From Gammaproteobacteria bacterium (GTDB lineage Bacteria; Pseudomonadota; Gammaproteobacteria; Eutrophobiales; Eutrophobiaceae): a stretch of DNA of 64,000 nucleotides. Both the position numbers and the translations under genes were made by a program. Each line of letters opens with the position of its first letter. The stretch's first letter is position 1. The stretch covers positions 7,698 through 71,697 of the forward strand of contig JBBDSH010000050.1 in the NCBI GenBank assembly GCA_040905045.1, in the 5' to 3' direction. The notes under the pieces were generated by a model, which saw nothing but the letters and a program-made list of their open reading frames with translations, searched no databases and was not told the DNA's origin. Shown piece after piece: positions 6,991 to 34,139 of the stretch.

Positions 6991-8064
6991 ATGAGTACGC
7001 TCAATCCGACAATCGAAACGCGGGATTATCGCCTGCCGCCTGACCAGGTGCCGGAAACGGTGGTCGAGACCCTGCCCGAGGAAGAACGGCAGGAACTCAA
7101 GGAACGCATCAAACGCCTGCTCAAGGAGCAGAATGCGGTCATTATCGCCCACTATTACGTCGACGCCGACCTGCAATTGCTGGCCGACGAAACCGGCGGC
7201 CACGTTTCCGATTCCCTGGATATGGCACGTTACGGCCACGACGCCCCGCAACAGACCCTGGTGGTCTGCGGCGTGCGCTTCATGGGCGAGACCGCCAAGA
7301 TCCTGAACCCGGAAAAGAAGGTCATCATGCCGGACCTGGAGGCGGAATGTTCCCTGGATCTGGGCTGCCCGCCGGACGAGTTCGCGGCTTTCTGTGACGC
7401 CCATCCGGATCGCACGGTGGTGGTGTACGCCAATACCAGCGCCGCCGTGAAAGCGCGCGCCGACTGGATGGTCACCTCCGGCAGCGCCGTCGACGTGGTC
7501 AACCATCTGAAGGAAAAAGGCGAGAAGATCATCTGGGCACCGGACAAGTACCTGGGCGAATACGTGCAGGAACAGACCGGCGCCGACATGCTCATCTGGC
7601 AGGGTGCCTGTGTCGTACACGAAGAATTCAAGGGCATCGAGCTGGAACTGCTGCGCCGCGATCATCCGGACGCCAAGGTACTGGTGCATCCGGAATCACC
7701 CGAGTCGGTGATCAAGCAGGCCGATGTGGTCGCTTCCACCACAGGCATCATAAAGGCGGTCAAGGAGATGGATGCAAAGGAATTCATTGTCGCCACCGAC
7801 AAGGGTATCTTCCACAAGATGCAGGAGGCGGCGCCGGACAAGGTCTTTATCGAGGCGCCCACCGCCGGCAAAAGCGCTACCTGCAAGAGCTGCGCCCATT
7901 GTCCCTGGATGGCCATGAACAGCCTGCGCAAACTCGCGGACGTGCTGGAGTCGGGCGGCAACGAGATCCATGTGGATCCGGAGATCGGCGAAAAGGCACG
8001 AGCGTGCATCAAGCGGTTGCTGGATTTCACCGAGGATCAGAAGAAACTGGCCGGAGATGCATAA
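6991..8064 (+). CDS. nadA: quinolinate synthase
   Basis: Typical NadA length and motifs ([32 protein letters not shown], cysteine ligands for the FeS cluster). Confidence 0.9.
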
Positions 8065-16021: not shown

Positions 16022-16444
16022 ATGCGCCAGCGAGTCCGCAAGCGTCCCATGTCCGAAATCAACGTCGTCCCCTACATCGACGTCATGCTGGTATTGCTGG
16101 TGATCTTCATGATCACCGCGCCGCTTCTGACCCAGGGCGTCAAGGTGGAACTGCCGCGGGTGGCCTCGGAACCCATGTCGCCCAGCGACAATGAGCCGGT
16201 TATTGTCAGCGTTGACAGTACCGGAAGATATTACATCAACTTCGGCGAGGATCAGGACAGTCCCGTGGACGCGCAGACGCTGGTCAACCGCGTCGGCGCG
16301 CTGCTGAAATACCGGCCGGACATCCCCATTTACGTCAAGGGCGATGAAAACGTGCCCTACGGCCGCGTCGTCGAGGTCATGGCGCTGCTGCAGACGGCCG
16401 GCGTGCCCAATGTCGGCCTCGTCACGAAACCGCCCGAAGGCTGA
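16022..16444 (+). CDS. tolR: Tol-Pal system protein TolR
   Basis: ExbD/TolR family (INVVPYIDVMLVLLVIFM); the TGA stop at 16442..16444 lies inside the MITE terminus CTGAATAAG. Confidence 0.9.
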   Translation: MRQRVRKRPMSEINVVPYIDVMLVLLVIFMITAPLLTQGVKVELPRVASEPMSPSDNEPVIVSVDSTGRYYINFGEDQDSPVDAQTLVNRVGALLKYRPDIPIYVKGDENVPYGRVVEVMALLQTAGVPNVGLVTKPPEG

Positions 16445-16532
16445 ATAAGTGTTCCGAATTCCAGTACAGTTGCAGTCCGGGTTGAATATGGGACGGGGTC
16501 ATGGGGCATTGAAGCGACTAGCGCCAGGGACG
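16441..16532. mobile_element. left half of a MITE split by the prophage insertion
   Basis: ctgaataagtgttccgaattccagtacagttgcagtccggg...gcgactagcgccagggacg matches the left half of the intact copy at 59735..59950. Confidence 0.8.
16528..16532. repeat. 5-bp target-site duplication (GGACG), left copy
   Basis: GGACG directly precedes the prophage terminus TGTAACGCG and recurs at 54948..54952 directly after the other terminus. Confidence 0.8.
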
Positions 16533-16612
16533 TGTAACGCGCCACATGGTTTGAGATCGCAACGACAGATGGTTTGAGATCGTGCGGCGCACAAATACTA
16601 TTTACAAATAGT

Positions 16613-17053
16613 TTAAACGGTCTCTTCAGACGCCGCCAATATCTCTTGTCGCCGTGTCTCCGTCAGCAACCCGGCCTGCACCAGCAACGTCAGCCCCTCC
16701 TGGGTGTCGGGATCGTCGGCATAGACGCGGCGAGCGGTGCGTAGCATGTCGAGGTAGTCCTCGATGAGTGGCTCGGATTTGGCGGCAGTGCGAATATCGA
16801 TCCGCTCTTGGCGGGTGAAGCGGTCCAGGAAGGCTCTGGATGACCAGCTCGCCCGGGGCGCCGGCGCCGGCGGCCCGACCACCCGCAGCCCCGGGGGCGT
16901 TACGCCAGCATCGGCGATCAGTCCGTCCAGTTCCTGCCGGTTCAGTCCGATGCGTGCCAGCGTATCGTCGCCGGCGTGGTGCAGCGCGATCAGGGCGCGG
17001 TGATACTCCTCGCTCTGCAGAGTCTGCAGATGTTGTTTGCTTTCGATTTTCAT
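16613..17053 (-). CDS. hypothetical phage protein (last gene before the prophage end, downstream of the DGR RT)
   Basis: 146-aa ORF whose ATGA overlaps the RT stop; no recognisable motif. Confidence 0.4.
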   Translation of the reverse strand: MKIESKQHLQTLQSEEYHRALIALHHAGDDTLARIGLNRQELDGLIADAGVTPPGLRVVGPPAPAPRASWSSRAFLDRFTRQERIDIRTAAKSEPLIEDYLDMLRTARRVYADDPDTQEGLTLLVQAGLLTETRRQEILAASEETV

Positions 17054-18033
17054 GACGCGATCTCCAGATGACGTAACAGGTTGTGGCTGTCGGCCCAGTT
17101 GGCGTGGCCGGTCCAGGCGGCCAGGAATTTGGCCAGGGCCTCTTCATCGCCACGGGCACGCAAGGAGTTGATGGCGCGGCGTGCCCGCGTCACGCTGCTC
17201 CGGCGCAGCAGTTTGTGCTTGGGCCAGATGCGGTAGCCGAGGAAGTTGACGCCGCGGTTAACGGGCGCGAGTGTCCATTTGCTGAGTTTTAGACCGAGGC
17301 GTTCCTTGCTGACAGCTCGCATGGCGTTAAGCGTCTTTCGGAGGACGTCCGGGTCGTGGTGCAATACCACGATATCGTCCATATAGCGCGCCCAGTGTTG
17401 GTGTTTCAATTCCTGCTGCAGCAGCCGATCGATGACGCCGCCGTAAAGGTTGGCGAAGTACTGGCTGGTCAGGCTGCCGATGGGAATACCCTTTCCCTGG
17501 GCAGGCAGCATGGCATCGATGATTCTGAGCGTGCCGGCGCAGCTGATTTTCTTGCGGATCAATCCATGCAGAACCCGCCTGTCGATGCTGTAGAAGTAAC
17601 GGTGGAAATCGGTCTTGAGATAATACAGGCGCTGGTCCTGCCGCACGAGCCGGCGCATGTCGGACTGTACGGCCTTGACACCGGCGTGCGTGCCGAGGCC
17701 GGGCCGACAGGCGAAACAGCGCGGCAGGAGCATCGCCTCAATAACAGGACCGATGACATTGCACAGCGCGTGCTGCGCCACGCGGTCGCGGAACGGCAGC
17801 GCCGAGATCTGCCGGACCTTGGGTTCGGACACGAAAAACTGATGAAACGGTCCACGATAATAAGTCCCGTCGCGCAGCTCGCGGGCGAGTATCGCGAGAT
17901 TGACTTCGGCGTATTCCTTCCATTCCAGATAGCCGGCGGACTGACGCTTGCCCTTGAGCGTGCGCTCATAGGCCAGGCGCATATTGTCGTCGCTGACAAT
18001 CGTCTCGATGAGGTTGCGGTATTTCTTAGCCAT
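17050..18033 (-). CDS. diversity-generating retroelement reverse transcriptase
   Basis: 327-aa RT (BPP-1 Brt is 328 aa) with RT palm motifs and the DGR-specific IGxxxSQ signature (GIPIGSLTSQYFANLY) instead of QG. It lies 150 bp downstream of the template repeat. Confidence 0.85.
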   Translation of the reverse strand: MAKKYRNLIETIVSDDNMRLAYERTLKGKRQSAGYLEWKEYAEVNLAILARELRDGTYYRGPFHQFFVSEPKVRQISALPFRDRVAQHALCNVIGPVIEAMLLPRCFACRPGLGTHAGVKAVQSDMRRLVRQDQRLYYLKTDFHRYFYSIDRRVLHGLIRKKISCAGTLRIIDAMLPAQGKGIPIGSLTSQYFANLYGGVIDRLLQQELKHQHWARYMDDIVVLHHDPDVLRKTLNAMRAVSKERLGLKLSKWTLAPVNRGVNFLGYRIWPKHKLLRRSSVTRARRAINSLRARGDEEALAKFLAAWTGHANWADSHNLLRHLEIAS

Positions 18034-18182
18034 AATAATAAATGCCCGGCGCGGGTTTCGATGATCTACTCCCCGCTATCCGGAACCCCGCAGTGTATTC
18101 GCCGAAGCAGGTCAAGCGGGCTGACCACCACAAGGACAGCCGGCCTGCGCCGCCGTAACGGACGCAGAGCGAAATAAGGGTC

Positions 18183-18301
18183 GTCACTGCAGCCGCGCGC
18201 CCCGATGTTGCTGTTCGCGTTCGAGGGCTGATTGTTCCAGTTGGAACAGCGCGAACCGGCGATGGCGCCGTTGCTCCAGTTCCCGCCGAATAGCACGGCA
18301 T
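18183..18301 (-). repeat. DGR template repeat (TR), 119 bp
   Basis: 119-bp near-identical copy of 18758..18876. On the coding strand TR carries AAC/ATC codons (the TR frame reads NWSNGAIAGSRCSNWNNQPSNANSNIGARG) where VR has varied codons. Confidence 0.85.
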
Positions 18302-18312
18302 GCAAACCCCGC

Positions 18313-18681
18313 TCAACCTTTACGCCTCTTGCCGATCCACGTGCCCAGCATCTTTCCCGTTTCGGCCAGGTGCGTACTGGCAACCCGGTGCTGCTTCGGC
18401 GTGATGATGCGTCGCTGTGAATGGCTCATGAAGCGTAACCAGAACCGCAGATGCGCCAGTCCGGCATCCGCGGCATAAAGGCGGGAAACCTGATTCGACT
18501 TCCCGCCAACGATAAATAAATGCACCTGCTCCAGCATGGCCTGGAGGAACATGTCCCGTACGCGCCCGTGTTTGCGCGGAATGTTCTGCGCCACCGGATA
18601 CATGTAGTTAATGAATTTTTCATATTTCTCGACAATCGCCAATTGATCGACGGGCGCCCGTTCGTCCTTAACCGTCTCCAT
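18313..18681 (-). CDS. avd: DGR accessory variability determinant (Avd-like four-helix bundle protein)
   Basis: 122-aa basic protein between the target gene and TR. FIVGGKSNQVSRLYAADAGLAHLRFWLRF closely resembles the Bordetella phage Avd as recalled from memory. Confidence 0.75.
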   Translation of the reverse strand: METVKDERAPVDQLAIVEKYEKFINYMYPVAQNIPRKHGRVRDMFLQAMLEQVHLFIVGGKSNQVSRLYAADAGLAHLRFWLRFMSHSQRRIITPKQHRVASTHLAETGKMLGTWIGKRRKG

Positions 18682-18720
18682 ACTCTGCTCCTCGTTTGCG
18701 TTTCAAGTTTCATGAACGAC

Positions 18721-18740
18721 GGCAGCGCTACCGCGCTGCC
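18721..18740 (-). promoter_or_regulatory. GC-rich hairpin (8-bp stem, 4-nt loop) immediately 3' of VR/IMH
   Basis: ggcagcgc tacc gcgctgcc is a perfect inverted repeat that starts at the target-gene stop codon. It matches the DGR target-recognition hairpin described for BPP-1, and TR has no equivalent. Confidence 0.7.
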
Positions 18741-20080
18741 TATGCAAGTCTCAGGTGGTCACTGCAGCCGCGCGCCCCGATGATGCTGGCCGCGTTCGAG
18801 GGCTGACTGGTCCAGACGGAACAGCGCGAACCGGCGACGGCGCCGGCGCTCCAGTTCCCGCCGAATCGCACGGCATTGTCGACCTCGTAAGTCTCACCGC
18901 GGCCGCCGGTGATGTCTTCCCACGTGCCCGCCGCGGCGTCGGGATTGCTGCCGCCGAACTCCGAGCCCCAGATCCACATACACGCCGTCGCCTGGATCAC
19001 ACCCCAGCGCGAGGTGAACGCCTCATCGCCGTTGTTGCTGCCGCTGTTGGTGGTCGCGATCCCGGTCGTGACGGGATCGTTGCCGCGATCGACTTCCTCG
19101 CTGGTGCCGTAGGCCAGCGCGGCGAACTCCTGGTAGGACGGCGGGCGCTTGCCGTGCGCGGCCAGCACCTCGGTCAGATTCCACCAATTCGCGGCAGCGT
19201 AGACGCTGGTGCCGTTGCCGCCGAATGCGTCCGGGATCTTCGGCGCGTTGCTGTTATCCGCGATCGTCACACCGTGCGCCGATGTGCCGTTGATATGGTG
19301 ATCGACGCCGAGCAGGTAGATATCGGCCCAGAAATTCCCGGCGACCAGCGTCATGCCTCGCGGATCATCACAGGCCGGGCGCCATTTCAAATCCCAAAGT
19401 GAATACTCGTTGATCTGCGCCGTCGTGTTACCGCCCGCTTGTGCGCCGGCGTTGGAGCCCGGCGCGTAGTGGAAGCCACCGATACGGCGTGCATTGGCCA
19501 CTGGCGGCGAGGTGTAACTGCTGGTTGCCTCCAGCGTGCCATCCGGGTGAATCCAGATCACGTAATCCGTGCCTGCACTCGGCGAGCCGGGCATCGTGAT
19601 CGAGGTGCTGGCCGCGATCTCGTACACCGTGCCGTTGACCTCGATGGTCAGCGCCTGCGATGTCTCGGCGGTGAAGTTACCGGTCTTGGTCCAGGCGACG
19701 GTGGTGGGATCGGATTTGGCGAAGAGGGCGGCGGGCAGTTCGCCGCCCGACGTAAATTCACTCCAGGATCCGGCAGTAAACTGATACCGCTTATCCTCGT
19801 CCTCGACGTACGCCCACCACCCATTATTGGGCGCGTAGTATTTCCACGCGCCGGCAACGCGCACGGCCACTTGGTTCTCGTTGGCGTCGCCCACCGGCAC
19901 GATGTAGCGAACGCCGTCGTTCGGCGTGCCGGGCAGGCTGGTGGTGCGCGACTTCACGCTGAGCTGGACGATGGCGCCCAGGCCGATCAGGTTCTCGTCG
20001 TTTTCCGTGTGCCAGCCGTTGAAGCCGAGACCCCAGGCGTATTTGATCCAGTTCAATATAGGGTGCGTGCTTGGTGCCAT
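18740..20080 (-). CDS. DGR target protein: Mtd-like tail fiber/receptor-binding protein with C-terminal C-type-lectin-fold variable region
   Basis: The C-terminal ~40 aa (FGGNWSAGAVAGSRCSVWTSQPSNAASIIGARGCSD) are encoded by VR. The gene follows the truncated J-like tail-tip gene. Confidence 0.8.
   Translation of the reverse strand: MAPSTHPILNWIKYAWGLGFNGWHTENDENLIGLGAIVQLSVKSRTTSLPGTPNDGVRYIVPVGDANENQVAVRVAGAWKYYAPNNGWWAYVEDEDKRYQFTAGSWSEFTSGGELPAALFAKSDPTTVAWTKTGNFTAETSQALTIEVNGTVYEIAASTSITMPGSPSAGTDYVIWIHPDGTLEATSSYTSPPVANARRIGGFHYAPGSNAGAQAGGNTTAQINEYSLWDLKWRPACDDPRGMTLVAGNFWADIYLLGVDHHINGTSAHGVTIADNSNAPKIPDAFGGNGTSVYAAANWWNLTEVLAAHGKRPPSYQEFAALAYGTSEEVDRGNDPVTTGIATTNSGSNNGDEAFTSRWGVIQATACMWIWGSEFGGSNPDAAAGTWEDITGGRGETYEVDNAVRFGGNWSAGAVAGSRCSVWTSQPSNAASIIGARGCSDHLRLA
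18758..18876 (-). repeat. DGR variable repeat (VR), 119 bp, at the 3' end of the target gene
   Basis: Differs from TR at 11 positions; 10 of these are TR coding-strand adenines (AAC->GCC/GTC/ACC/AGC/ATC, ATC->GTC). The eleventh is a non-adenine difference at the 5' edge. Confidence 0.85.
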
Positions 20081-22290
20081 CAGGCGAGCCCTCCGTAATC
20101 GTTACCGTAATGCCGGCCGTAACCGGCCAGGCGAATTTCCTCGCGGCGCTGCTGTTGCCAGTTGGTGTAGCCGTCGCGCAGCGCGTCGATCTCCCAGGTG
20201 ATGTGACCCAGCGCGGCGCCGTCGTTGAGTTCCTTCGCCTCGTCGTAGATGTATTCGTCGCCGGTCAGCCCGGTGACCAGGCGGCGCGATGTGCCGGTCT
20301 CGCCGTCGCGGATGCGCACGTTGTACGTGGTGCCGGCTTCCGGGCCGATGGGGCCGGCGTCCTGATCGATCAGCTCCGCCGTCTGCAGCGTGCGGTCGCG
20401 GTGCGCCCAGTTCAGCGTCGGCACGCCGCTGACTTCCTCCGGCCAGTCTTCGCCGTTCACCCGGATCTGGCCGGGCGGGTACGGCCGGATGAAGCGCGAG
20501 TCGAAAGTAATGTTGTCCGTCGGCGCGCTGGCCACATCCAGCCGTCCTAAAGAAGTAGACGGCAACACGCGCACGTTCGCCGTCTCGCTGTCGACAAATT
20601 CCGTCGTCGGTGTGGCCTCGAAGTTCTGGCCGAAGAAGATCCGCGCGCCGCTGCTGTGCGCGTTTGGCACGGTATCAATGACGCCGCGATTCACCGTCAG
20701 CGTGCCGGCGCCGATGTCGATATCGGTGACCTCGACGATCTCGCCGTCCAGGTACGCCCACGTGCCTGCCTCGACGAGATCCAGATCTTCCGTTGCCGTG
20801 CTGTTGTCGATGGGCAGCACGGTCTGCTGAGGCGTAATGTCATCGGTGATCGTTGTGGTCGGCGCGAAGTTGCCGGGCGGGCCGATGCGCTCGTAGACGC
20901 CGCCGACGTTTTCCATCACAAGAAAGTTAAACGCGTCGCTGCTCGGCCGCACGGCGTTCACCACCAGAAAGCCGCTGGATTCGTCGATGCCATCGAGCAC
21001 GGCATCGGAGTCCGCCACTTCGCGCGCCACCTGGTAGTACGTCGCCTCGGTGAGCAGCCGGAACGGCGCCGGCGCCGGCGTGCTGCGCGGGTCGATCCAG
21101 TCCGTCGGTGTCGGATCGGCGAACTCGGAATCGACCAGCGAGAACACATCCTGCACCGCGTTCACGGTGATGGCGCGATCGGTGAGCGTGCCGTAATTGA
21201 CCTTGGCGATCCGGATCACCATTGAGGTGATCCCGTATTCCGGCCAGCTGAATAGATACACATCGCCCGGCCGGATAGCGTCCTGATCGGACGTGAGCCG
21301 CAGCTTCATCTGTGCCAGCGGCGCGGAGAGCTGGCGCAGGTCGCGGGAACAGACGCGGTTCGCCAGCGCGCCCTTGGTGATGCCGGTGTAGCGATGCGTG
21401 CGGTTGATCACCTGGCCGCCCTGGATCTGCAGCGCCGCGAGATTCTGGATCGTGACGGATCGTTCCTTCCAGGTGGGCTCGTCGTCCTCTCCGTCGATGT
21501 AGGTGACGGTCATTTCGTTCACCAACTCGCCCCAGCCGGGTACCTTGTAATCCAGCACCTCGATGATGTTGGTGTTGTCCAGCGTCTGGAGATTGCCGAC
21601 GGTGTAATCGTCCCGCGCCAGCTTCAGAGACCACAGGCCCGTGGTCGGATCTTCGTAGAGCGAGGCATCGATGTGCTGCAGCACGGATTGAATGAAGCCC
21701 TCGATATCGAGATTCTCATCCGTCCACAGGAAAGAGAGGCCGAAGCCCTCGCTGGCCAGCGTCGATCGCGCGGCGTTGAAGGCATCGACATCGACGCGCG
21801 ACTCGCTGTAGCCCATGCCCCAGTCCTTGCTGGTGATCAGCTCATAGAGAATATGCGCCGGGTTCGCATCATTTCCGATCAGTCCGCTGCCGGCGCCGCT
21901 CCATCCATTCGGCGTGCGCCGGCCGGTCGCCGCCCAGTTCTTGAAACGCGGTATATTGCCCAGATAAGGGCGCTTTAAAACGGCCGCAACAATACCTCGA
22001 AAGGCCGGGATCGCCGCGCCCAGTTGCGAGACCAGGTAACTGTTCGCGGTCTGCGCTTCGCCGCCCATCTCGATATCCACATCGCCGGACACGCCGCCCT
22101 CGCGATCCTCGCCGCCGAACAGTTCTTCCTCGTCGATGCTGATGGTGCCGCCGCTGGTCTCGCCCTGCCAGGCGACGCGATCGCCGACGCGGATCTCGGT
22201 GATGTTGTCGATGGGTCCACGGCACCAGGCCAGATGCATGCCGACGTAATACTTATACCCGACCGTGATCTCCTGACTCTTACCGCCCAT
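20080..22290 (-). CDS. phage tail tip / host-specificity protein J-like (N-terminal Phage-tail_3-type portion only)
   Basis: 736 aa; it resembles the lambda J N-terminal/central region (e.g. NPAHILYELITSKDWGMGYSESRVDVDAFNAA) but lacks the J C-terminal receptor-binding part. Confidence 0.55.
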   Translation of the reverse strand: MGGKSQEITVGYKYYVGMHLAWCRGPIDNITEIRVGDRVAWQGETSGGTISIDEEELFGGEDREGGVSGDVDIEMGGEAQTANSYLVSQLGAAIPAFRGIVAAVLKRPYLGNIPRFKNWAATGRRTPNGWSGAGSGLIGNDANPAHILYELITSKDWGMGYSESRVDVDAFNAARSTLASEGFGLSFLWTDENLDIEGFIQSVLQHIDASLYEDPTTGLWSLKLARDDYTVGNLQTLDNTNIIEVLDYKVPGWGELVNEMTVTYIDGEDDEPTWKERSVTIQNLAALQIQGGQVINRTHRYTGITKGALANRVCSRDLRQLSAPLAQMKLRLTSDQDAIRPGDVYLFSWPEYGITSMVIRIAKVNYGTLTDRAITVNAVQDVFSLVDSEFADPTPTDWIDPRSTPAPAPFRLLTEATYYQVAREVADSDAVLDGIDESSGFLVVNAVRPSSDAFNFLVMENVGGVYERIGPPGNFAPTTTITDDITPQQTVLPIDNSTATEDLDLVEAGTWAYLDGEIVEVTDIDIGAGTLTVNRGVIDTVPNAHSSGARIFFGQNFEATPTTEFVDSETANVRVLPSTSLGRLDVASAPTDNITFDSRFIRPYPPGQIRVNGEDWPEEVSGVPTLNWAHRDRTLQTAELIDQDAGPIGPEAGTTYNVRIRDGETGTSRRLVTGLTGDEYIYDEAKELNDGAALGHITWEIDALRDGYTNWQQQRREEIRLAGYGRHYGNDYGGLA

Positions 22291-22474
22291 CGTGTTCCTC
22301 CCGCGCGGCGTCCACCACCTTCATGGCCATCGGATCGCCGGTCGCGATCAGCGCCTCGGCCTCGATGCCGTTACGCACGAAGCCGCGCCAGTCCAGATCG
22401 TGACGGGCAAACCAGCGCCGCGCGCCGCGCGCGCAATGATGCGCCTGGCGCAAATGGCGGACGTGGACCTTCAC
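22280..22474 (-). CDS. small hypothetical phage tail-module protein
   Basis: 64-aa ORF filling the gap between the 79-aa and J-like ORFs, with ATGA-type overlaps on both sides. Confidence 0.3.
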   Translation of the reverse strand: MKVHVRHLRQAHHCARGARRWFARHDLDWRGFVRNGIEAEALIATGDPMAMKVVDAAREEHDGR

Positions 22475-22710
22475 TTCTTGCCTCCCTTACTCTTGATCGG
22501 CACCGTGCGCAGGTCGCCGTACCAGATCACATTGGGCGCCTTCATTTGCCGGCGGCCGAACAACACCGGGATCGGCTTGCCTTCCTCGGCGGTCGGCACG
22601 TCCAGCTCGCCCAGCTTGGCCGGCTCCGGAATATTCTGCCCGGCGCCCGGCCGCAGGAACGCGCTGATCGCGAAGCTGACGACGAGGAATGCAATCTGCC
22701 ACCACACCAT
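22471..22710 (-). CDS. small membrane-anchored phage tail protein
   Basis: 79 aa with an N-terminal TM helix, translationally coupled to the L-like gene. Confidence 0.4.
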   Translation of the reverse strand: MVWWQIAFLVVSFAISAFLRPGAGQNIPEPAKLGELDVPTAEEGKPIPVLFGRRQMKAPNVIWYGDLRTVPIKSKGGKK

Positions 22711-22712
22711 GA

Positions 22713-23462
22713 TCAGAACACCGGATCGGAGCCGAAGGGATTGATGCGCGGTATAAACGGCATGCCGCCGTAGTTCACCACGTTGTCGAACTTGTCGATG
22801 CAGGTCTGCCTGTCGTGCGCGCAGCCAGCGAAAGCGGCGACGTCCTCACCGACCTCGGAATCGATCAGCGGCGAGGACAGCGTGATGGTGTCGCCGGCGT
22901 GATCGACGATGGCGCGCCGCTGGTTGCCGTACTCCACATAGCCGGCGATAAACCAGCCGTCCTCCTTCGTATCGAACTCCGCCGCCGAGAGCGTCAGATC
23001 CGTGCGCGCCGTCAACGTCGCCAGCACACGGAAGTCGTTGCGCACCACCTTGCAGTTGTCGTCGTAGAGCGCGTGCCGGCAGAGTTTCTGATAACGCGCG
23101 TGCAGGCCGGTGCGCTTCATGGAACTGAAAATCGGCTCGCACTGCAGGACCACCTCCGAGCCGGACCAGGCCGCCGTCAACACCCGGCCGGTCCAGATCA
23201 CCACCGTCGCCTCATCGTCCTGCTGGAAGATATCCAGCTCCATCACGGTGGCCGGCGCGCCGCCGACGAACAGCGCGGCCACGCCGGCGTCGCGCGGCAG
23301 CCGCACGCTGATCCGGGCGCGGGCGATTTCCTCGGTGTGTTCGATCTCGTTGCGGCGCACGTAGATGGGATCGTAGTCCTGGCCGTCGTGCGTTACCTTG
23401 CTTGGCGATGTCGTGTAACCGAACACCAGGCCTGCGACGACGAATCGGTACAGCTCGATCAT
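22713..23462 (-). CDS. minor tail protein L-like
   Basis: 249 aa whose C-terminal cysteine cluster CAHDRQTCIDKFDNVVNYGGMPFIP resembles the lambda gpL C-terminus. Confidence 0.5.
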   Translation of the reverse strand: MIELYRFVVAGLVFGYTTSPSKVTHDGQDYDPIYVRRNEIEHTEEIARARISVRLPRDAGVAALFVGGAPATVMELDIFQQDDEATVVIWTGRVLTAAWSGSEVVLQCEPIFSSMKRTGLHARYQKLCRHALYDDNCKVVRNDFRVLATLTARTDLTLSAAEFDTKEDGWFIAGYVEYGNQRRAIVDHAGDTITLSSPLIDSEVGEDVAAFAGCAHDRQTCIDKFDNVVNYGGMPFIPRINPFGSDPVF

Positions 23463-25102
23463 TCCACGGCCCTCATCGTCAGCATCGCCTGGATTTTGTC
23501 ATCGGTAATCCAGGCGATCTCGATGGCGTCGCTATCCAGGCGCACGGTCTCCAGCCAGCAGACGCGGCGGATCTCGCTGCGCGTCAGGCGGGTATCGGTG
23601 AGCGCGCGATCCAGTGTCAGCGTTTCCTCATCGCCGACGACGTCGCCGGCCAGCACATAGGCGAAGTGCCACTCGTCGTCAATGTCCTCGACGGCGATGA
23701 GGTTGCGGTTGGCGCGGCCGTCGTAATAATTGCTCCAGTTGATCGGTTCGATGCGCAGCACCGATTCGTCCGCCTCGATGGCGCCGGTCAGTACCATGTC
23801 CGCCGACCAGGTGGGATAACGGAAGGCGTTCAAGCGGCCGGCGCGCGCCAGCAGCCAGGCGATGAAGCCGTCCGCATCATCACGCGTCCAGAAGTTGAAC
23901 CGCCAGCGGTGGCTCTGGATGGGATCGTCGTCCGGATCGTCCACCAGGATCAGGCCGCCGGGCGCGTCGATGCGCACGCCGGCGCGAGCGTAATCCACGC
24001 CGCCGCTGCGCGCCCAGTTCGGCTGCACCAGGTAGACGGGCAGGCCGTCGAAAGTGGTCTCGCTCTCCGCCGCCTCATACGTCGTCGCGGTGTCTTCATC
24101 GGCGATGAATTCCAGCTCGCCGGAAAAGAACGCATCCGTGCGCCGGGAAAAGCCCACCTCCTGATCGATGTACATCAGCCGCGCCGGGTACACGCTCGTG
24201 CCTTCCGGCCAGGTGTTCGAGAGCGGGTGCTGTATCGTGATCGCGTCGGGCTCGATGGCCTCGATCACCGGCGCCTCGTAATCGAGATCCTCATCGATCA
24301 GCACCAGCTGCGATCCGATCCGCCACTCGCCGACGCCGGTGTCCACGGCCAGCGTGATCTCGCCTGCGCTCGCCGTTGCGTTCAGGCGGGCGCGGTCCAT
24401 CCAGCGCGGCACGTTAAACAGGCGCGATTGCCAGCCCGACAGCAGCGCGTCCACCAGCGGCACGTGCTCGCCGGCGACGCGATAGCTGAGGCCGCGTCGC
24501 GGCCGCGTGAGGATCTTCGTTCGCACCTCATTGCCGGCGCGCGCCCGCTGCAGATCCGTGCGCCAGATCCAACGCTCGATGACCGACTCGGACCATTCCG
24601 GCGGCACCGGCCAGGCCTGCGCCACCAGGCGGCTGCCCTGGATGATCAGGACCGCGTCCGTGTCCGAGTCGAACACGATCAGCGCGTCGATGATCTCCGG
24701 CCCGTCCAGCGTCACGTCCACGTCGTAGAGTGCGGACTTGCGCGCCTCGATGGGGAACGGCGTCGCCGGATGATTGATGGTGATGCCGGTATCGCCCGTC
24801 TTCGCCACGTCCGTGATCGAGGCATCCGTATCGCCGGCGTTGTAGACGGCGGCCTGATCCGACACCGGCTGGCGGATGGTACCCAGCTGAATCGAGCCCG
24901 GGATCGCGTGCAGGCGATCGGCCCAGTCGCGATCGTAATACATCGGTACCGGCGCGCCGTTTTCTATGTTGCTGGTCACCGGCACCGGCACAGTTTTTAT
25001 GGTCCGCGTGACGGACAGCACGTCCTCGATGTCCTCCGCCGCCAGCGCGATGGCGGCGGGCAGGATGGGATCGGAAGCGAGAATGCCGTCGACGATCGCC
25101 AT
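23459..25102 (-). CDS. phage tail protein (distal tail/baseplate-like)
   Basis: ~547 aa from the ATG at 25100..25102; the track ORF start at 25264 would overlap the upstream gene by 160 nt. Confidence 0.45.
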   Translation of the reverse strand: MAIVDGILASDPILPAAIALAAEDIEDVLSVTRTIKTVPVPVTSNIENGAPVPMYYDRDWADRLHAIPGSIQLGTIRQPVSDQAAVYNAGDTDASITDVAKTGDTGITINHPATPFPIEARKSALYDVDVTLDGPEIIDALIVFDSDTDAVLIIQGSRLVAQAWPVPPEWSESVIERWIWRTDLQRARAGNEVRTKILTRPRRGLSYRVAGEHVPLVDALLSGWQSRLFNVPRWMDRARLNATASAGEITLAVDTGVGEWRIGSQLVLIDEDLDYEAPVIEAIEPDAITIQHPLSNTWPEGTSVYPARLMYIDQEVGFSRRTDAFFSGELEFIADEDTATTYEAAESETTFDGLPVYLVQPNWARSGGVDYARAGVRIDAPGGLILVDDPDDDPIQSHRWRFNFWTRDDADGFIAWLLARAGRLNAFRYPTWSADMVLTGAIEADESVLRIEPINWSNYYDGRANRNLIAVEDIDDEWHFAYVLAGDVVGDEETLTLDRALTDTRLTRSEIRRVCWLETVRLDSDAIEIAWITDDKIQAMLTMRAVE

Positions 25103-25962
25103 CACGGAATCAACCGGAATGCGTAATGAGCGACGAACTTCCACGTGTCCGAGCCGACCGTAAACTCCGCGCCGCCGGTCAGCGTCGGGTGATAATAGTG
25201 CCGCACGTCCGGCACCGTGCCGGCGTAGCTGTAATTGCCGCCACCGCGATTGATCAGCGCCCACAAGGGGAACATGGCGCCGCGCCCGGACCAGTCGGCC
25301 GGATCAAGGTTTTCGACCGCCAGTGACTCGAAGAAATTTTTCAGGCATTGCAGCAGCAGTGATCCGTTGCGCGTGTTGGTTGTGGTGTGCCACTGATCGG
25401 TATTGCCGTCCACGTCCGCGTTCACGGCCGTGTTGCGATCGCTGGAATCGAACAGCGTGTTATCGTAAAAGGCGTTGTCGCCGCGCACCGGCATGCCGGA
25501 GACGTACGCGCCGCCGGTCCAGGTGCCGAACTTGTCCAGCGTCCCCAGGATCATCGCGCACCACATGAACGCGTCCTTGCGCGCGAGCACATGAATGTAG
25601 TCGCCGGCGGCGTTGCTCAGCAGCAGGTATTCCTTCACGTCCGTCTGATTGAACACACCAAGCAGGGCCGGATAACCGCTGTCGCCCGGCTGGCTGTCCC
25701 AACTCAGGCCGCCATCGAAACCGCGCGCGCCGAAGCAGGCAATGCCGGGATGATTGTAGTCGGCAAAGCTGTTCATGATCGCGCCGAAGTCGATGCTGTC
25801 CAGATCGTCGTCGGCCTTGAGCGCGTAATAATCACTGCCGTTCTGCAGGTACAGTTCACTGGCCGTTGTTTTGTTGACGGTCCAGCCCAGGGTGCCGGCG
25901 AACACGCCGATCTTGTCCAGCAGGTCGTAGACGTCCGTCGCTGTGCCCGTTTCAACCGTCAT
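25102..25962 (-). CDS. phage tail-associated protein, paralog B
   Basis: 286 aa, paralogous to 25959..26816 (MTVETGTATDVYDLLDKIGVFAG vs MAYQNGTASDYLDLLKKLEDFAV). Confidence 0.5.
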   Translation of the reverse strand: MTVETGTATDVYDLLDKIGVFAGTLGWTVNKTTASELYLQNGSDYYALKADDDLDSIDFGAIMNSFADYNHPGIACFGARGFDGGLSWDSQPGDSGYPALLGVFNQTDVKEYLLLSNAAGDYIHVLARKDAFMWCAMILGTLDKFGTWTGGAYVSGMPVRGDNAFYDNTLFDSSDRNTAVNADVDGNTDQWHTTTNTRNGSLLLQCLKNFFESLAVENLDPADWSGRGAMFPLWALINRGGGNYSYAGTVPDVRHYYHPTLTGGAEFTVGSDTWKFVAHYAFRLIP

Positions 25963-26816
25963 GCCAGCTCCAGCGCCATGAAGTCGTGAATGTCGTTGCG
26001 CAGTGTGTTCTGCGCCACCAGGTAATCCTGCGTGCCGGTATCGACAATATCCTCCGTGCCCAGGGAAAAGCCGGTGATGTGGCGCACGCCGTCCAGCTCA
26101 CCGAGATGGCCCTCCACGTTGTTCGATGTCGGGATCATGAGCACAGGCGGGAACAGCGGATAATCGCCGAAGGTATCGCGCAGCGAATCCTGGTTGCCCG
26201 TATTCGCGTCCATCCACGGCCAAATGCGCACGTTGTCCGTGCTCGTGCCGATCTGCCGCCAGGTATCATCCGGCGTCCACAGGTAGCCGTGGCCCTGGCC
26301 GCTGGCCCAGTAGGCGTTCAGCCCGGTGTTGGACCAGCGCGCTGTGCTCGAGGCGGAGGATCCGCCGATGAGCAGCGGGTAATCGTATTCGAAGTCGGCG
26401 GCGTAGGGATTGATGTAGCCGAGATACAGGTGCATGTAGACCGTGCTCACTTTCGCCACCAGCGCGATGCGCTGCTTGTTGCAGATCAGCCAGTAAGGAA
26501 TGCTGTCGTTCCACAGCGGCAGATAGCGCGCGTTGCTGTCCTGGACCATGTTGTCGTAGGTCTCGCCGTCGTAGATCCGCGCGCCCTTGAATTCCCAGTT
26601 ATAGTAATCGCTGCCGACATCGTGATAACTCTTGATGCCGACGATGATGTTCTGATCGTCATTGACGCCCGGCCCGTCCAGGATCAGCTCGCCGTCCGTG
26701 CCGCCGACCTCGTCGTAGGTCGAGCGCTGCACCGTCCAACCCTGCAGGACCGCGAAGTCCTCCAGCTTTTTCAGCAGGTCCAGATAATCACTCGCGGTGC
26801 CGTTCTGATACGCCAT
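25959..26816 (-). CDS. phage tail-associated protein, paralog A
   Basis: 285 aa immediately downstream of the tape measure gene. Confidence 0.5.
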   Translation of the reverse strand: MAYQNGTASDYLDLLKKLEDFAVLQGWTVQRSTYDEVGGTDGELILDGPGVNDDQNIIVGIKSYHDVGSDYYNWEFKGARIYDGETYDNMVQDSNARYLPLWNDSIPYWLICNKQRIALVAKVSTVYMHLYLGYINPYAADFEYDYPLLIGGSSASSTARWSNTGLNAYWASGQGHGYLWTPDDTWRQIGTSTDNVRIWPWMDANTGNQDSLRDTFGDYPLFPPVLMIPTSNNVEGHLGELDGVRHITGFSLGTEDIVDTGTQDYLVAQNTLRNDIHDFMALELA

Positions 26817-28921
26817 TATCCGAGACTCCGTTTCACGCTGCCGGGATTGCGGCCGATGGTATTGAGGATCACTTCCTCGCCGGACGCGGAATTCATCGCA
26901 TCGGCGATCGCCTGTGGATCAATCGCGTTGACGATGCGCACGTTGCTGCCGCCGCCGCCCGCGCCGCCGTTGAACCGATGGCGCGGATCCTCGCGCGTGA
27001 TCACTTCCTCGCCACGCTGCAGGATCGCCGGCACCTCATCCGAGCTGAGGCCCAGCGCGCCGCCGCCGTGAAAACGCGGTGCGCTGATGAACGCCGCCGG
27101 GCTGACGCCGCGCTTACTGCCGCCGCCGGGGACGGCAATGCCGCCCTCGTGTAAAAAGCTGGAAAAGAACCCGGCCAGCCCGCCCTCACTGGACGGAAAG
27201 ATACGCTCGAGGATCGCCGCCGCCGCCGCTTCCGCAATCATGCGCCGCATGGCGTTGGCGAAGCCCAGGACCATGCCCTCCAATCCCTCGTCAAAAGGAT
27301 CGAACAGAAAGTCGGCGAACTCGCTCTGCAGGTTGCGCGCACCCTGCACGGCGAACTCGCTCATCTCCTCGCCGGATTCCTCAGCGGCTTCCTGTAACTG
27401 AAACAGCTCCGCCACCAGGGCGCGCACGGCTTCGCGTTGTTCGTCGGTGGCGTCGGCCGATAGGCGATCTACCGCAATGGCTTGCTGACGTTCCAGCGTT
27501 GACATGCGCTCCAGTTCAATCTTGCGTTCCAGGTCTGCTATCAGCTGCGTATCAGCCTCGCGGTTTTCTTCCAGTGCGCGACGCCGCTCGGCCTCGGCTT
27601 CGGCCTGGGCGCGCGTGGCCTTGGCGTCGTCACGCTTTGCCTGGACCCGCTCCTCGGTCGATCCGTCGGCGGAACTATCCAGCGCATCGTCGACCCTGCC
27701 AAGCAACGCGTCGATTTGCTGCGACGGCAATGCATCATTCATTAGCCCGGACAGGCCGTTGGAAAAGTCCTCACGCAGCCGCGAGACCCGTTCCCGGCTG
27801 GCGCGTGCCGCTTCGCTGAGGCTGTCAAGGAGTGGACTGTTGTCGAGCAGGCCCGGGTCGAACAGCGGGATGTTCACGCCCGGAATACGGTTAAACGCGC
27901 GGATCGCGAAGTTGGCCCCCTCGCTGGCTCGCCTGTCAATCGCGGCGAATGCCTGGGCGGCAGTGTCGAGCAAAGTCAGCAGAGTTGATGCGAAGCCGGA
28001 CAACACCAGATTGGCCCCGGTGATGCCGGTGGCTATGACCTTGACGCCGTTGGCCATGATCGCGCCGAAGCGGATGCCGGCACGCAGCCCGGAGACCACC
28101 GTGTCGCTGAACGACTTCGCCGTGCCGGCCGACTCCTCGAACGATGTCTTCAACAACGACTGGACGGTGTTCGCGAACGCCTTGAGGAAATCGAACAAGC
28201 CTTCGTCCATGACCGCAGCGCGGAATTGGAACCAGAGATCGGACAACATGGACATCGCGCCGTCCCAGGTCTGGGCCATTTGTTCGGTCGCGCCCCGAAT
28301 GGTGTTGGTGGCCGAGCCCGAACCGAACCACATATCGAAGATGTGTTGACGCGTTTCCTCGGCCGTGGTGGCAACGCCGGCCTCGAAGCCGAGCATCGCG
28401 GACACGCCCCGCTCCCGGAATAATTCAGCACTGTTAATGCCGCTGCCCAGGGCTCGCTGAATATTTTGGGCCGTCTCCTGGAACGACAGGCCGCTGACAA
28501 CGGCAATATCGCCGGTGATCTGCAGCAGCTTGTTCAGCTCTTCGACGTCATCCGCGACCGTTAACAGCAACGGAGACGACTCGACGATCTCCTGGAATTG
28601 AAACGGTACCCGCCCGGCGAACTCGCGCATGATATCGAATGCGCGGTTGGCATCCTGAACCGAACCGGTTAATGCCTCAAGCCGTATCCGAGTGGTTTCG
28701 ATCGTGCGGCCCACATCGAGAAAACTGCGGGCAAGGAGACCCACGCCCAATGTGGCAAAGGCGCCGCGAAGAGAGAATACGGCATCATTGACGCGTGACA
28801 AGGCTCGGCGGGCGCCGCGACCGAAAGTGCGTATATCGCCGATGGCGGAATTGACCGCGCGCTTCAGCCCGCGCGCGTCGCCGCGTATCAGAAGTCGTAG
28901 GATTTCCCGGCTGTTTGCCAT
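26816..28921 (-). CDS. tail tape measure protein
   Basis: 701-aa largely alpha-helical protein directly downstream of the G/GT chaperone pair. Confidence 0.75.
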   Translation of the reverse strand: MANSREILRLLIRGDARGLKRAVNSAIGDIRTFGRGARRALSRVNDAVFSLRGAFATLGVGLLARSFLDVGRTIETTRIRLEALTGSVQDANRAFDIMREFAGRVPFQFQEIVESSPLLLTVADDVEELNKLLQITGDIAVVSGLSFQETAQNIQRALGSGINSAELFRERGVSAMLGFEAGVATTAEETRQHIFDMWFGSGSATNTIRGATEQMAQTWDGAMSMLSDLWFQFRAAVMDEGLFDFLKAFANTVQSLLKTSFEESAGTAKSFSDTVVSGLRAGIRFGAIMANGVKVIATGITGANLVLSGFASTLLTLLDTAAQAFAAIDRRASEGANFAIRAFNRIPGVNIPLFDPGLLDNSPLLDSLSEAARASRERVSRLREDFSNGLSGLMNDALPSQQIDALLGRVDDALDSSADGSTEERVQAKRDDAKATRAQAEAEAERRRALEENREADTQLIADLERKIELERMSTLERQQAIAVDRLSADATDEQREAVRALVAELFQLQEAAEESGEEMSEFAVQGARNLQSEFADFLFDPFDEGLEGMVLGFANAMRRMIAEAAAAAILERIFPSSEGGLAGFFSSFLHEGGIAVPGGGSKRGVSPAAFISAPRFHGGGALGLSSDEVPAILQRGEEVITREDPRHRFNGGAGGGGSNVRIVNAIDPQAIADAMNSASGEEVILNTIGRNPGSVKRSLG

Positions 28922-29522
28922 CAGTCTTGTCGCAATTTACGCACGCTTTGAGCGGCCTTTTGGCCGCCGTTGAATCCGGTATGAATGTCCTCGATCCGTT
29001 CGGCTCGCGCCTGGCGCTCCCTGCGCAGCGCGTGCTTATAGAAGAGCGTCAACTGCCGTCGCGTATAGGTTTTGATCGTCGGCCAGTCATGGCCGTGATC
29101 AACCAGCGCAGCGCAGATCTCGCCCCAGCCGGCCCGGCGGGCTTCCCCTCCAGGGCGGACGCCAGGCTGAGGCGGCGGGCGAAAAAACCGCGCATCACCC
29201 GCCAGAAGGCCAGTTGGTACAATCTGCCCTGATCGTCCTTCAGCGACATTAACCATTCCTTATCCACATCGCCGCAGAACGCCATAAAATCCAGCAGCGT
29301 ATCCTTGTTGGCGACGTCGAGGCTCATGCACGTATCGATGAAAGATTCATGGCCCTCGCTGGCAGCCTCGCCGAGATCATGGATCACGGGCTTGAGAGGC
29401 CCTTCCCACTCCAGCGCCTGCAGCCAGGACGGTTCCCGGATCGTGACCTCGCGCCCGCCGACGGTGATCGTCAGTTCGGGCGCGAGGATCTCCAGATCGT
29501 TCGCGTGCTTGTTGGCCGGCAT
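28921..29522 (-). CDS. tail assembly chaperone pair (G-like 29049..29522 and a -1 frameshift-extended GT-like product continuing to 28921)
   Basis: ORF 29049..29522 overlaps ORF 28921..29256 in the -1 frame. The overlap contains the slippery heptamer T_TTT_TTC (RGFFARR in the 0 frame, ARFFRPPP in the -1 frame). Confidence 0.65.
29171..29177 (-). other. programmed -1 ribosomal frameshift slippery site (TTTTTTC on the coding strand)
   Basis: The plus-strand gaaaaaa at 29171..29177 is the reverse complement of the coding-strand U_UUU_UUC, which sits in the ORF overlap upstream of the tape measure gene. Confidence 0.6.
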
Positions 29523-30286
29523 CAGGACTGCGGCTGGCTCAGATCGATGATCCGCCCGGTGCGGCCCAGTGTGTCATTGCCTGCTTTCGTATCGTCATCG
29601 AAGGCCACGGCGTTCATGCTGAGCTGGCCGTGCGCCTCGTTGATCAGCGAGAGCGTCTCCACCGGGTCGAACTTCACCTTGTAGAGTTCCACCAGCACCG
29701 GCTTGTCGCCGTCGGCCGTGTTGATGCCTTGCAGGCGCACCCAACGGATCGGCGGCTGGCCGGCGAACATGGCGATGTTGATGCCGCCGGCGTAGTCGTA
29801 GTCGGCCACCAGCGGTTGCGTGAACGTGGACAAGTCCAGGAACTTGATGGTGCCGTGCTCGGCGCTCTGAATTTCGTAGTGTGTATCCTCGGTCAGGGCG
29901 GCGGCGGCATTGTCCTCGAGCACAAGATTGGAAATGTTCTGCTGCTGCAGCGCCACCAGGTCGCCGTCCTCCAGCCCGGAGGGCAGTGCCTCGTCGGTGA
30001 CCGAGCCGGCCGCGATGGCCGCCGGCGTGCCGTACAGGGCGAGGCCAAGATTCAGCGTGCTGAAGTCGTTCAGCACCAGCGACAGGTTCACGTCCTGGCC
30101 GGTGATGATCTCCGAGCGCAGCCGGCGACGGCCGGACTGGGATTCGTACTGCTGATCCTTGTTCACGCCCAGGCTGAGATCGAACGTCGGCGCGACGCCG
30201 ATATCGCGAAAGGCCTTGGCGTTGCCGTTGGCGTCGCGCTCGGCGAGGAGCACGTGGCCCTGGAAACTGAATTGTTTCATATCCAT
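29522..30286 (-). CDS. major tail (tube) protein candidate
   Basis: 254 aa encoded immediately upstream of the tail chaperones; no sheath gene is present. Confidence 0.45.
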   Translation of the reverse strand: MDMKQFSFQGHVLLAERDANGNAKAFRDIGVAPTFDLSLGVNKDQQYESQSGRRRLRSEIITGQDVNLSLVLNDFSTLNLGLALYGTPAAIAAGSVTDEALPSGLEDGDLVALQQQNISNLVLEDNAAAALTEDTHYEIQSAEHGTIKFLDLSTFTQPLVADYDYAGGINIAMFAGQPPIRWVRLQGINTADGDKPVLVELYKVKFDPVETLSLINEAHGQLSMNAVAFDDDTKAGNDTLGRTGRIIDLSQPQS

Positions 30287-30297
30287 GATCGCTTACC

Positions 30298-30525
30298 TCA
30301 CTTGTCGTTATCGTTGTTGCCGGCAGGCTTGTCGGCGTCGTTACTGCCGACGGACTTCAGCGGCGCTTTGCTGCCGCCGGAGACTTTCTCGCCGCGCTCT
30401 TTTTTCACCAGGCGATCCGCCGCGCCCGGGCTCACTTCGATCACATCGTTCACCGGGCAGGGCTTGCCGCGATGGCGGTGGCCCTCGGCGGTGATGCGCA
30501 CTTTCACTTTCTCATCGGCTTTCAT
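30298..30525 (-). CDS. small phage protein (DUF2635-like)
   Basis: 75-aa basic protein at a conserved position in Mu-like late operons. Confidence 0.35.
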   Translation of the reverse strand: MKADEKVKVRITAEGHRHRGKPCPVNDVIEVSPGAADRLVKKERGEKVSGGSKAPLKSVGSNDADKPAGNNDNDK

Positions 30526-30538
30526 GGTCTCGTTCTCC

Positions 30539-31894: not shown

Positions 31895-31898
31895 ACGA

Positions 31899-32138: not shown

Positions 32139-32156
32139 TTTTCCGCTCCTGAATGT

Positions 32157-32285: not shown

Positions 32286-32311
32286 CGTCGCTCACTCGCT
32301 TGGTAAATTCT

Positions 32312-32626: not shown

Positions 32627-32628
32627 GA

Positions 32629-34137: not shown

Positions 34138-34139
34138 AA

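Follow-up and report, generated by a model that had tools for sequence, protein, structure and literature searches.

The 64-kb stretch of DNA analyzed here (the window), from contig JBBDSH010000050.1 of a gammaproteobacterial metagenome-assembled genome (MAG), very probably carries an intact diversity-generating retroelement (DGR) of the BPP-1 type, which lies at the very end of a Mu-like siphophage prophage of 38.4 kb and diversifies a tail receptor-binding protein. The cassette has the BPP-1-type order of target gene, avd, template repeat (TR), spacer (Sp) RNA and brt, the gene for the reverse transcriptase (RT), all on one strand. Each of these parts is intact in the window, and the variable repeat (VR) at the end of the target gene differs from the TR in an adenine-specific manner. 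A first-pass annotation of the same DNA had proposed a complete mtd-avd-TR-brt element of the BPP-1 type, and its features, including open reading frames (ORFs) of 446, 122 and 327 amino acids (aa), were found where it had placed them.

Template and Variable Repeats

A repeat search revealed a 123-nt direct repeat on the minus strand, with the two copies being 90% identical. One copy, the VR (positions 18754-18876), forms the last ~40 codons of the target gene. The other, the non-coding TR (18179-18301), sits 575 nt downstream of the VR in the direction of transcription, between the 122-aa and 327-aa ORFs. This pair is the sole significant TR-like match within the window (blastn, E = 1e-41), and no second VR was found when the 64 kb was searched for one.

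The TR and VR differ at 12 of the 123 nt, and 10 of these mismatches are at TR adenines (five A to G, three A to C and two A to T). With 26 adenines in the 123 nt, the probability that at least 10 of 12 mismatches fall on A is 1.8e-6 (hypergeometric test). The earlier count over 119 nt, 11 mismatches with 10 at TR adenines, is correct, as are the two peptides that were quoted for the repeats. A tabulation of the mismatches by TR base, which had been suggested as a check, shows them to be concentrated at A and not spread evenly. All ten adenine changes are confined to codon positions 1 or 2, where they turn AAC, AAT or ATC codons of the TR into Ala, Val, Thr, Ser or Ile codons of the VR. The codon changes reported previously are confirmed except for one, which is AAT to AGT and not a change to AGC.

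The two non-adenine mismatches are of different kinds. The G to C change at 18182/18757 (VR GACCAC, TR GACGAC) is the difference between the initiation of mutagenic homing (IMH) element and its TR counterpart, IMH*, that is typical of this family; it recurs as the first IMH/IMH* difference in most of 25 related loci, and it is positioned on the 3' side of the base at which cDNA synthesis is predicted to begin. The other is a T to G change at 18292/18867, close to the 5' end of the repeat. The mutagenised part of the VR, as observed, spans 18783-18847, a stretch with 17 TR-adenine positions, plus position 18867.

In the VR frame, 13 TR codons contain adenine (seven AAC, one AAT, two ATC, two AGC and one CAG). 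The repertoire computed from these codons is ~2.6e12 protein variants, and a stop codon can be reached from none of them. The adenine-specific difference between the two repeats implies at least one past mutagenic homing event. Furthermore, the VR has no non-adenine drift over 119 nt except for the single T to G change, which would suggest that the last homing was recent relative to the neutral mutation rate.

Reverse Transcriptase, Avd and Target Protein

The 327-aa product of brt (17050-18033, minus strand) was identified as a DGR reverse transcriptase by its match to a known structure and by its motifs. Among known structures, it is closest to the BPP-1 enzyme bRT (cryo-EM structure, PDB 8ub7_A), to which its residues 1-324 are 56% identical (E = 6.5e-121). 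RTs of the group II intron-like and retron types come next, with E values of only ~1e-13. The DGR RT signature motif is [I/V/L]GxxxSQ (PMC7826257); the protein has IGSLTSQ at residues 185-191, in agreement with the IGxxxSQ motif that the first-pass annotation had described, together with YMDD, the YxDD part of the signature, at residue 217 and an arginine at residue 74. Experiments with bRT have established that R74 and I181, the latter being the first residue of the [I/V/L]GxxxSQ motif, promote adenine mutagenesis (PMC7826257).

The 122-aa ORF (18313-18681, minus strand) encodes Avd, the accessory variability determinant. It matches the NCBIfam model NF033474 (DivGenRetAVD) with 112 bits, above the equivalog cut-off of 80, and the Pfam family bAvd (PF22296) with 112.6 bits (cut-off 40); it is also 56% identical to bAvd in the structures PDB 4dwl/8ub7_B (E = 1e-40). 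The homology searches that had been recommended for the RT and Avd proteins thus gave the expected answers. The statement that the DGR is not annotated needs correction, as the GenBank record of the MAG names MEX2524434.1 a "diversity-generating retroelement protein Avd".

The target gene (18740-20080, minus strand) encodes a 446-aa Mtd-like receptor-binding protein, as judged from matches to Pfam domains and to Mtd structures. The protein has a DUF2793 domain at aa 28-106 (61 bits) and an mtd_2nd domain at aa 130-230 (63.5 bits), followed by the C-terminal Mtd C-type-lectin domain that contains the VR. Residues 114-445 align with the Mtd crystal structures (PDB 1yu4) at 52% identity (E = 4e-104), and the alignment runs through the VR to the C-terminus, so that the VR-bearing domain is predicted by homology to Mtd to have a C-type-lectin fold. 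The aligned part corresponds to Mtd residues 51-380 only; the protein does not have the full-length Mtd architecture. Because only residues 114-445 align and the N-terminus is a DUF2793 domain, the target is a chimera and not a full-length Mtd orthologue.

The start codon of the target gene overlaps the stop codon of a gene for a central-fibre-like protein (20080-22290, phrog_1101). DUF2793 serves as the N-terminal tail anchor of receptor-binding proteins in Mu-like siphophages (bioRxiv 10.1101/150227), and judging from its gene neighborhood, the DUF2793 protein of the window is encoded where such phages usually have the gene for their receptor-binding protein. None of the three ORFs is truncated; the RT and Avd proteins align end to end with their BPP-1 counterparts, and the target does so over its C-terminal 330 aa. 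In addition, ~115 nt within the target gene (19284-19399) align at 74-77% identity with the region of tail fibre gene 17 in two records of Escherichia phage T7 (LR745707 and LR745708); both might represent engineered derivatives of T7 with sequence related to Mtd.

Spacer RNA, IMH and Hairpin

The gap between the TR and brt, given previously as 150 bp, measures 145 nt and is occupied by a structured Sp RNA (18044-18170, minus strand). The RNA matches the Rfam family RF03022 (Phage_DGR) over its full length (1-127) with 101.3 bits, twice the gathering score of 50, and BPP-1 itself scores 104.7 bits. In BPP-1, this RNA recruits the RT-Avd complex and supplies the priming 2'-OH at A56; G57 is required, and synthesis begins at TR G117 (PMC6182149). 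An alignment with BPP-1 places the equivalents of A56 and G57 at 18122 and 18121, inside the conserved GGTGGTCAGCC, and the equivalent of G117, the first base that is reverse-transcribed, at 18187.

The IMH-like element that marks the 3' boundary of the VR (18744-18778, minus strand) consists of a GC-rich core, GGGGCGCGCGGC (18767-18778), followed by TGCAGTGACCACCTGAGACTTG. The first-pass annotation had noticed this GC-rich stretch, and its core turns out to be identical to that of BPP-1. The VR-specific GACCACCTGA is common to the window, BPP-1 and most of the 25 related loci, and it is here that the TR diverges: the IMH* counterpart (from 18203 downwards) is the same through GTGAC, and then nine of the next 15 positions differ.

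A hairpin or cruciform follows the VR at 18721-18740. It has a perfect 8-bp stem and a 4-nt loop, as first described, and reads GGCAGCGC-GGTA-GCGCTGCC from 18740 to 18721, the first base being the G of the TAG stop codon. It folds at -12 kcal/mol (z = -3.4), and none of 200 shuffled sequences folds as well. A counterpart was sought after the TR and is absent. A GC-rich hairpin with a G-N-N-A tetraloop is present ~20 nt past the end of the VR homology in all 26 loci compared, the window and BPP-1 included. Among the 23 distinct sequences, seven of the eight stem pairs change on both sides, and the stem cells are paired in 95.7% of the cases versus 23-46% when the partner is slid by one to three columns; the percentage paired is partly a result of construction because the best hairpin was picked for each locus, which does not affect the constant position and loop type. 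In BPP-1, the hairpin/cruciform is needed for efficient homing, and it is the structure of the stem that matters and not its sequence (PMC3240598). Presumably the IMH and the hairpin would act here as they do in BPP-1.

Related Loci and Natural Variation

A scan of a genome collection with the RT returned ~28 related loci with RTs that are 46-71% identical to the one in the window. Most of them carry the same cassette of an Mtd-type C-terminus, avd, TR and brt. TR/VR pairs of 104-136 nt were recovered in 25 of the loci, and 301 of their 357 mismatches are at TR adenines. Only one locus in the genome collection, L002 (MAG contig DASTLN010000157.1, 12 kb), has the whole phage context in common with the window. 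Its RT is 71%, its Avd 76% and its full-length DUF2793-Mtd target 69% identical to those of the window, the small ORF that follows brt (orf146, see below) is 54% identical, and the tail genes are syntenic.

Metagenome and viral contigs were also scanned with a pattern made from the VR 3' end and the hairpin, which returned only this sister lineage and a decayed one. The scan added two sister copies, L075 and L077 (metagenome contigs Ga0214471_10092106 and Ga0214472_10079663), of which L077 is identical to L002. The comparison between L075 and L002 is informative: among 2,429 aligned positions there are 20 differences, every one of them inside the VR and 18 at TR adenines, with the TRs being identical and zero differences in avd, TR, Sp, brt and orf146. 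As the sister copies differ in the VR only and mostly at TR adenines, the cassette in this sub-lineage is active in natural populations. The variation is direct population-level evidence for the sub-lineage and not for the window's own copy.

The VR-confined differences lie at 32-118 of L075 and 9196-9282 of L002, and the remaining two changes are at TR thymines. A CTA codon near the TR 5' end has changed from T to G in the VR in two independent lineages, the window (18292/18867, see above) and L075; this codon may mark a recurrent, context-specific site of non-adenine misincorporation.

The decayed lineage is represented by L055 (6293-6790; IMGVR_UViG_3300026184_000140), on a contig shared with L076 and L078. 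The C-terminus of its target is 81% identical to that of the window. A deletion of ~1.2 kb has produced an in-frame fusion between residues 1-51 of Avd and residues 227-325 of the RT, and the TR, the Sp RNA and the RT catalytic core were lost. The target gene, a VR that is now frozen, the hairpin and orf146 have been kept.

The Mu-Like Prophage

The window has the host genes ybgC-tolQ-tolR (to 16444), the prophage, and then tolA-tolB-pal-cpoB (from 55103). The prophage itself (16533-54947, 38,415 bp) is located between tolR and tolA in the tol-pal operon. It has 5'-TG...CA-3' termini, beginning with 5'-TGT, and is flanked by a perfect 5-bp target duplication, GGACG, at 16528-16532 and 54948-54952. 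The DGR-proximal terminus (16533-16582) starts with 5'-TGTAACGCG and contains two 20-nt repeats that resemble transposase sites (16540-16559 and 16563-16582). Such repeats are present near both ends of the prophage, with four matches versus 0.05 expected by chance, and L002 keeps the same end repeats and terminus. The perfect duplication and the intact termini imply a fairly recent transposition. The prophage has inserted into the middle of an intergenic element of the host, a palindrome of ~230 nt (flanks 16441-16532 and 54948-55080), and the empty site, when reconstructed, has a folding energy of about -120 kcal/mol.

Two other interpretations of these boundaries were considered and rejected. 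An inverted sequence, TGTTCCGAAyTCCAGTAC, at 16450 and 55071 could be mistaken for the prophage termini; the comparison with L002 and the target duplication rule this out, and these inverted flanks are the arms of the palindromic host element. Two head-to-head prophages are likewise ruled out, by the presence of TolA (55103-56035) and TolB (56040-57353) and by the single pair of ends and single duplication around the 38.4 kb.

The gene content fits the earlier proposal of a Mu-like transposable siphophage. The prophage encodes a MuA-type DDE transposase (38229-40406), with matches to Mu-transpos_C, rve and HTH_Tnp_Mu_1, and a MuB-like ATPase (40271-41221), with matches to AAA_22 and TniB. Mu-type late and head genes include GemA, Mor, gp27, Portal_Mu and Mu F. 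The tail genes are those of a non-contractile tail, i.e., a phrog_807 major tail protein, chaperones, a tape measure, distal tail proteins and the phrog_1101 central-fibre-like protein; no sheath family was detected among the 20 tail and head ORFs scanned. On the basis of these genes and the termini, we classify the host element as the prophage of a Mu-like transposable siphophage. The DGR is its last functional module before the terminus.

Some other genes of the prophage deserve mention. A tRNA-Met (CAT) gene (32158-32233, minus strand) lies between the major capsid and head-tail adaptor genes, and a 78-nt stretch is 85% identical to a tRNA-Met of Rhodobacter phage RcXuper. A gene at 35717-36355 (minus strand) adjoins the repressor gene and encodes a 212-aa outer-membrane beta-barrel protein (OMP_b-brl/Opacity family). 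It is likely to be a moron or a lysogenic-conversion gene; if the inverted gene block described below were turned back, this gene would be at the c-proximal end of the phage. Viral contigs were also scanned for relatives of the head protease, and none were found.

Proposed Mechanism and Alternative Explanations

The mechanism that we propose, including activity of this copy at present, is modeled step by step on BPP-1. A transcript of avd, TR and Sp would be bound by the RT-Avd complex by way of the structured Sp RNA. The 2'-OH of the Sp adenosine at 18122 would serve as the primer for cDNA synthesis, with the TR guanine at 18187 as the first base copied. The TR would then be copied faithfully except at adenines, where R74 and I185 of the RT are expected to favor misincorporation. 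The adenine-mutagenised cDNA would replace the VR; the GC-rich IMH would set the 3' boundary, and the hairpin/cruciform at 18721-18740 would make the process more efficient. The TR, which has IMH* and no hairpin, would never be a homing target. In this way, the 13 codons on the predicted ligand-binding face of the C-type-lectin domain could be re-drawn in ~2.6e12 combinations, none with a stop, in a protein that is probably anchored at the tail tip, beside the central fibre, through its N-terminal DUF2793 domain. A diversified ligand-binding face on a tail-tip protein would enable the phage to switch receptor specificity.

Several observations weigh against an intact, functioning element. The block of genes from c to MuF (35466-54775, plus strand), which contains the early genes, the lysis genes, the terminase and the portal and reads towards tolA, is inverted relative to the block from the protease to the DGR (16613-35465, minus strand), and so, the head module is split. 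The relatives L080, L081 and L083 and the Chromohalobacter phage YPCBV-1 keep TerL, portal, MuF, protease and capsid on one strand; thus, the window does not have the collinear Mu order. Inverted repeats were looked for at the junctions of the inverted block and none were found, and the inversion is either a real rearrangement or an error in the MAG assembly. A prophage with such a block may be defective, in which case the selective context for tropism switching would be lost. In addition, the scan for promoters and terminators around the cassette gave results at chance level, with no convincing promoter upstream of avd and the TR. All three proteins form singleton clusters, so that one copy of the exact element exists in the databases searched, and the loss of the TR, Sp RNA and RT core in L055 indicates that related cassettes do decay.

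Taken together, the inversion, the decay in L055 and the single copy would fit a cassette that is structurally complete but silent, i.e., a DGR that is not expressed or was inactivated recently, in a prophage that has been rearranged and is possibly defective, with the VR being a record of past homing. We regard this explanation as unlikely, although it has to be taken seriously. The three ORFs are full length and the cis-elements are all intact, the VR has accumulated only one T to G change as non-adenine drift over 119 nt, the perfect 5-bp duplication and intact termini point to a fairly recent transposition, and the sister lineage is demonstrably active. A quite improbable alternative is that the diversified protein binds a ligand other than a receptor, such as mucus or glycans in the environment; binding of this kind has been proposed for some DGR targets of phages with Ig-like or C-type-lectin domains. 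The N-terminal third of the target, which is unlike BPP-1 Mtd, would leave room for this. However, Mtd, to which the C-terminal 330 aa are 52% identical, is proven to bind a receptor, and the gene is in the DUF2793 slot after the central fibre, which in phages DMS3 and JBD26 encodes a virion pilus-binding protein (bioRxiv 10.1101/150227).

Finally, the TR and VR might be an ordinary duplication that has drifted, next to an RT of group II intron or retron origin that plays no role in diversification. The best NCBIfam match of the RT is indeed a group II intron RT/maturase model, but the score of 90.9 bits is far under the cut-off of 300, and NCBIfam holds no DGR-RT model. This idea is refuted, and we give it practically no credence: the mismatch spectrum is adenine-specific, the RT has IGxxxSQ and not QGxxxSP (PMC7826257), the match to bRT exceeds by far the matches to group II intron-like and retron-type RTs (1e-13 or weaker), and the cassette also includes an Avd, an Sp RNA, an IMH and a hairpin. 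An intact BPP-1-type DGR that diversifies a tail receptor-binding protein is the explanation that we favor.

A Small ORF Coupled to brt

The last gene of the prophage, orf146 (16613-17053, minus strand; 146 aa), ends 80 nt from the terminus, and its start codon overlaps the stop codon of brt (ATGA). It is a possible member of the DGR. The protein matches only phrog_25252, a family of unassigned function, and it has no significant similarity to bbp4 of BPP-1; against a profile of bbp4-like ORFs the match is not significant (E = 0.04). It is conserved after brt in L002 (54% identity) and in the decayed L055 (65%). An ORF that overlaps the RT stop codon is present in BPP-1 (bbp4) and in 21 of the 28 related loci (L002-L030 except L028), and the small bbp4-like ORFs of BPP-1-type loci have an N-terminal INTR-DLDAL-GT motif in common.

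The gene orf146 accompanies the cassette into a different tail background, and it has survived in L055 after the loss of the RT core. One could speculate that the small ORF coupled to the 3' end of brt is an overlooked, lineage-variable fourth component of BPP-1-type DGR cassettes and not a chance neighbor. We consider this doubtful. If true, the ORF might have a part in the integration of cDNA, or it might link diversification to the development of the phage.

Comparison with Known Systems

The element is a further representative of the well-known DGR family, and it leaves the current understanding of DGRs unchanged; earlier work has already described Mtd-type targets, targets in phage tails and Mu-like hosts. 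For example, Mtd-domain targets are a recognised class in the survey by Wu et al., where they make up 12 of 372 targets, one of them with an N-terminal extension (PMC5758913). DGRs in Mu-like phages were reported by Toussaint in 2013, as cited in PMC5883640. This report, together with the phages Mushu, Hankyphage and YPCBV-1, provides precedents for a Mu-like host, and so, the setting is not as unusual as the first-pass annotation had supposed. Three aspects are mildly new. These are the occurrence of the BPP-1-type cassette proper, with the RF03022 Sp RNA that YPCBV-1 lacks, in a Mu-like siphophage, the fusion of a BPP-1-type Mtd module to a DUF2793 anchor, and the natural evidence for VR switching from the sister lineage.

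Hankyphage of Bacteroides (PMC6199706) and Mushu of Faecalibacterium (PMC5883640) are Mu-like phages that, like the prophage in the window, have 5-bp target duplications and a DGR that diversifies a tail protein. Their hosts, however, belong to bacterial phyla that are distant from that of the window. DGR RTs of Bacteroidota and Firmicutes from the genome scan, which are not those of Hankyphage and Mushu themselves, are ~27-35% identical to the RT in the window.

YPCBV-1 (OP380511; PMC9769972) is closer in that it is also a Mu-like phage of a gammaproteobacterium with a DGR, and its cassette of target, Avd, TR and RT occupies the same position, i.e., the last genes at the right end. Its complete TR/VR pair has 14 of 14 mismatches at TR adenines. 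However, YPCBV-1 is a myovirus with a sheath and a baseplate, its genes are in the standard collinear Mu order, its RT is only 38% identical to that of the window, its Mtd-like target is 31% identical and has no DUF2793, and it has no Sp RNA of the RF03022 type.

The target of YPCBV-1 (L054) is ORF53 (33159-34208), with the 126-nt VR/TR pair at 34074-34199 and 34591-34716. In the paper on the phage, ORF53 is taken for an "auxiliary metabolic gene" of the SUMF1/EgtB/PvdO type that may have an antioxidant function (PMC9769972); this functional assignment is probably wrong. The early region of the same genome also contains a type II hammerhead ribozyme (RF02276, 78 bits) at 7490-7554 on the plus strand.

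The anchor has its closest parallels in gp49 of DMS3 and gp59 of JBD26, both from Mu-like Pseudomonas siphophages. These proteins also have an N-terminal DUF2793, are encoded directly downstream of the central fibre gene and have a variable C-terminal receptor-binding part. Unlike the target in the window, their C-termini are not of the Mtd/C-type-lectin kind and are not diversified by a DGR. Within its own lineage, the cassette is matched best by the sister copies L002, L075 and L077, which have the same hairpin stem, GGCAGCGC, and an Sp RNA that scores 103 bits. The nucleotide identity is ~70%, and the sister lineage is represented by several copies versus one for the window.

In its gene order and orientation, the cassette is the same as that of the Bordetella phage BPP-1, a Rauchvirus with the arrangement mtd-avd(bbp7)-TR-brt. 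The RT and Avd are both 56% identical between the two and the C-terminal 330 aa of the target are 52% identical. The Sp RNAs belong to the same family, with the priming A56-G57 context and the equivalent of TR G117 conserved, and the IMH core and the VR-specific sequence are shared. Both TRs are rich in AAC, with Asn codons at homologous positions, and both VRs are followed after the stop codon by an 8-bp/4-nt hairpin at the same site; the stems differ, and the loop is GAAA in BPP-1 and GGTA in the window. Other differences are the length of the repeat (123 nt with 13 variable codons in the window and 134 nt with 12 variable codons in BPP-1) and the IMH*, which is more diverged from the IMH in the window, with nine mismatches in its 3' part. 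The ORF coupled to the RT stop codon also differs, as noted above. The largest differences are the host, which is a short-tailed Rauchvirus in one case and a Mu-like transposable siphophage in the other, and the target, in which Mtd residues 1-50 have been replaced by an N-terminal region of ~113 aa with DUF2793.

In conclusion, the window adds a fully parsed DGR of the BPP-1 lineage from a gammaproteobacterial MAG. It also illustrates the modularity of these cassettes, in that the C-terminal Mtd module, together with avd, TR, Sp and brt, is grafted onto a DUF2793 tail-tip anchor, versus a short-tailed phage in the case of BPP-1. At ~55% protein identity, the window has conserved every determinant that experiments have defined in BPP-1. 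These are the priming adenosine, the G that is templated first, R74 and I181 of bRT, the core of the IMH, and the hairpin. This conservation makes the element a useful natural comparison to BPP-1, both for structure-function studies and for engineering of DGR targeting.

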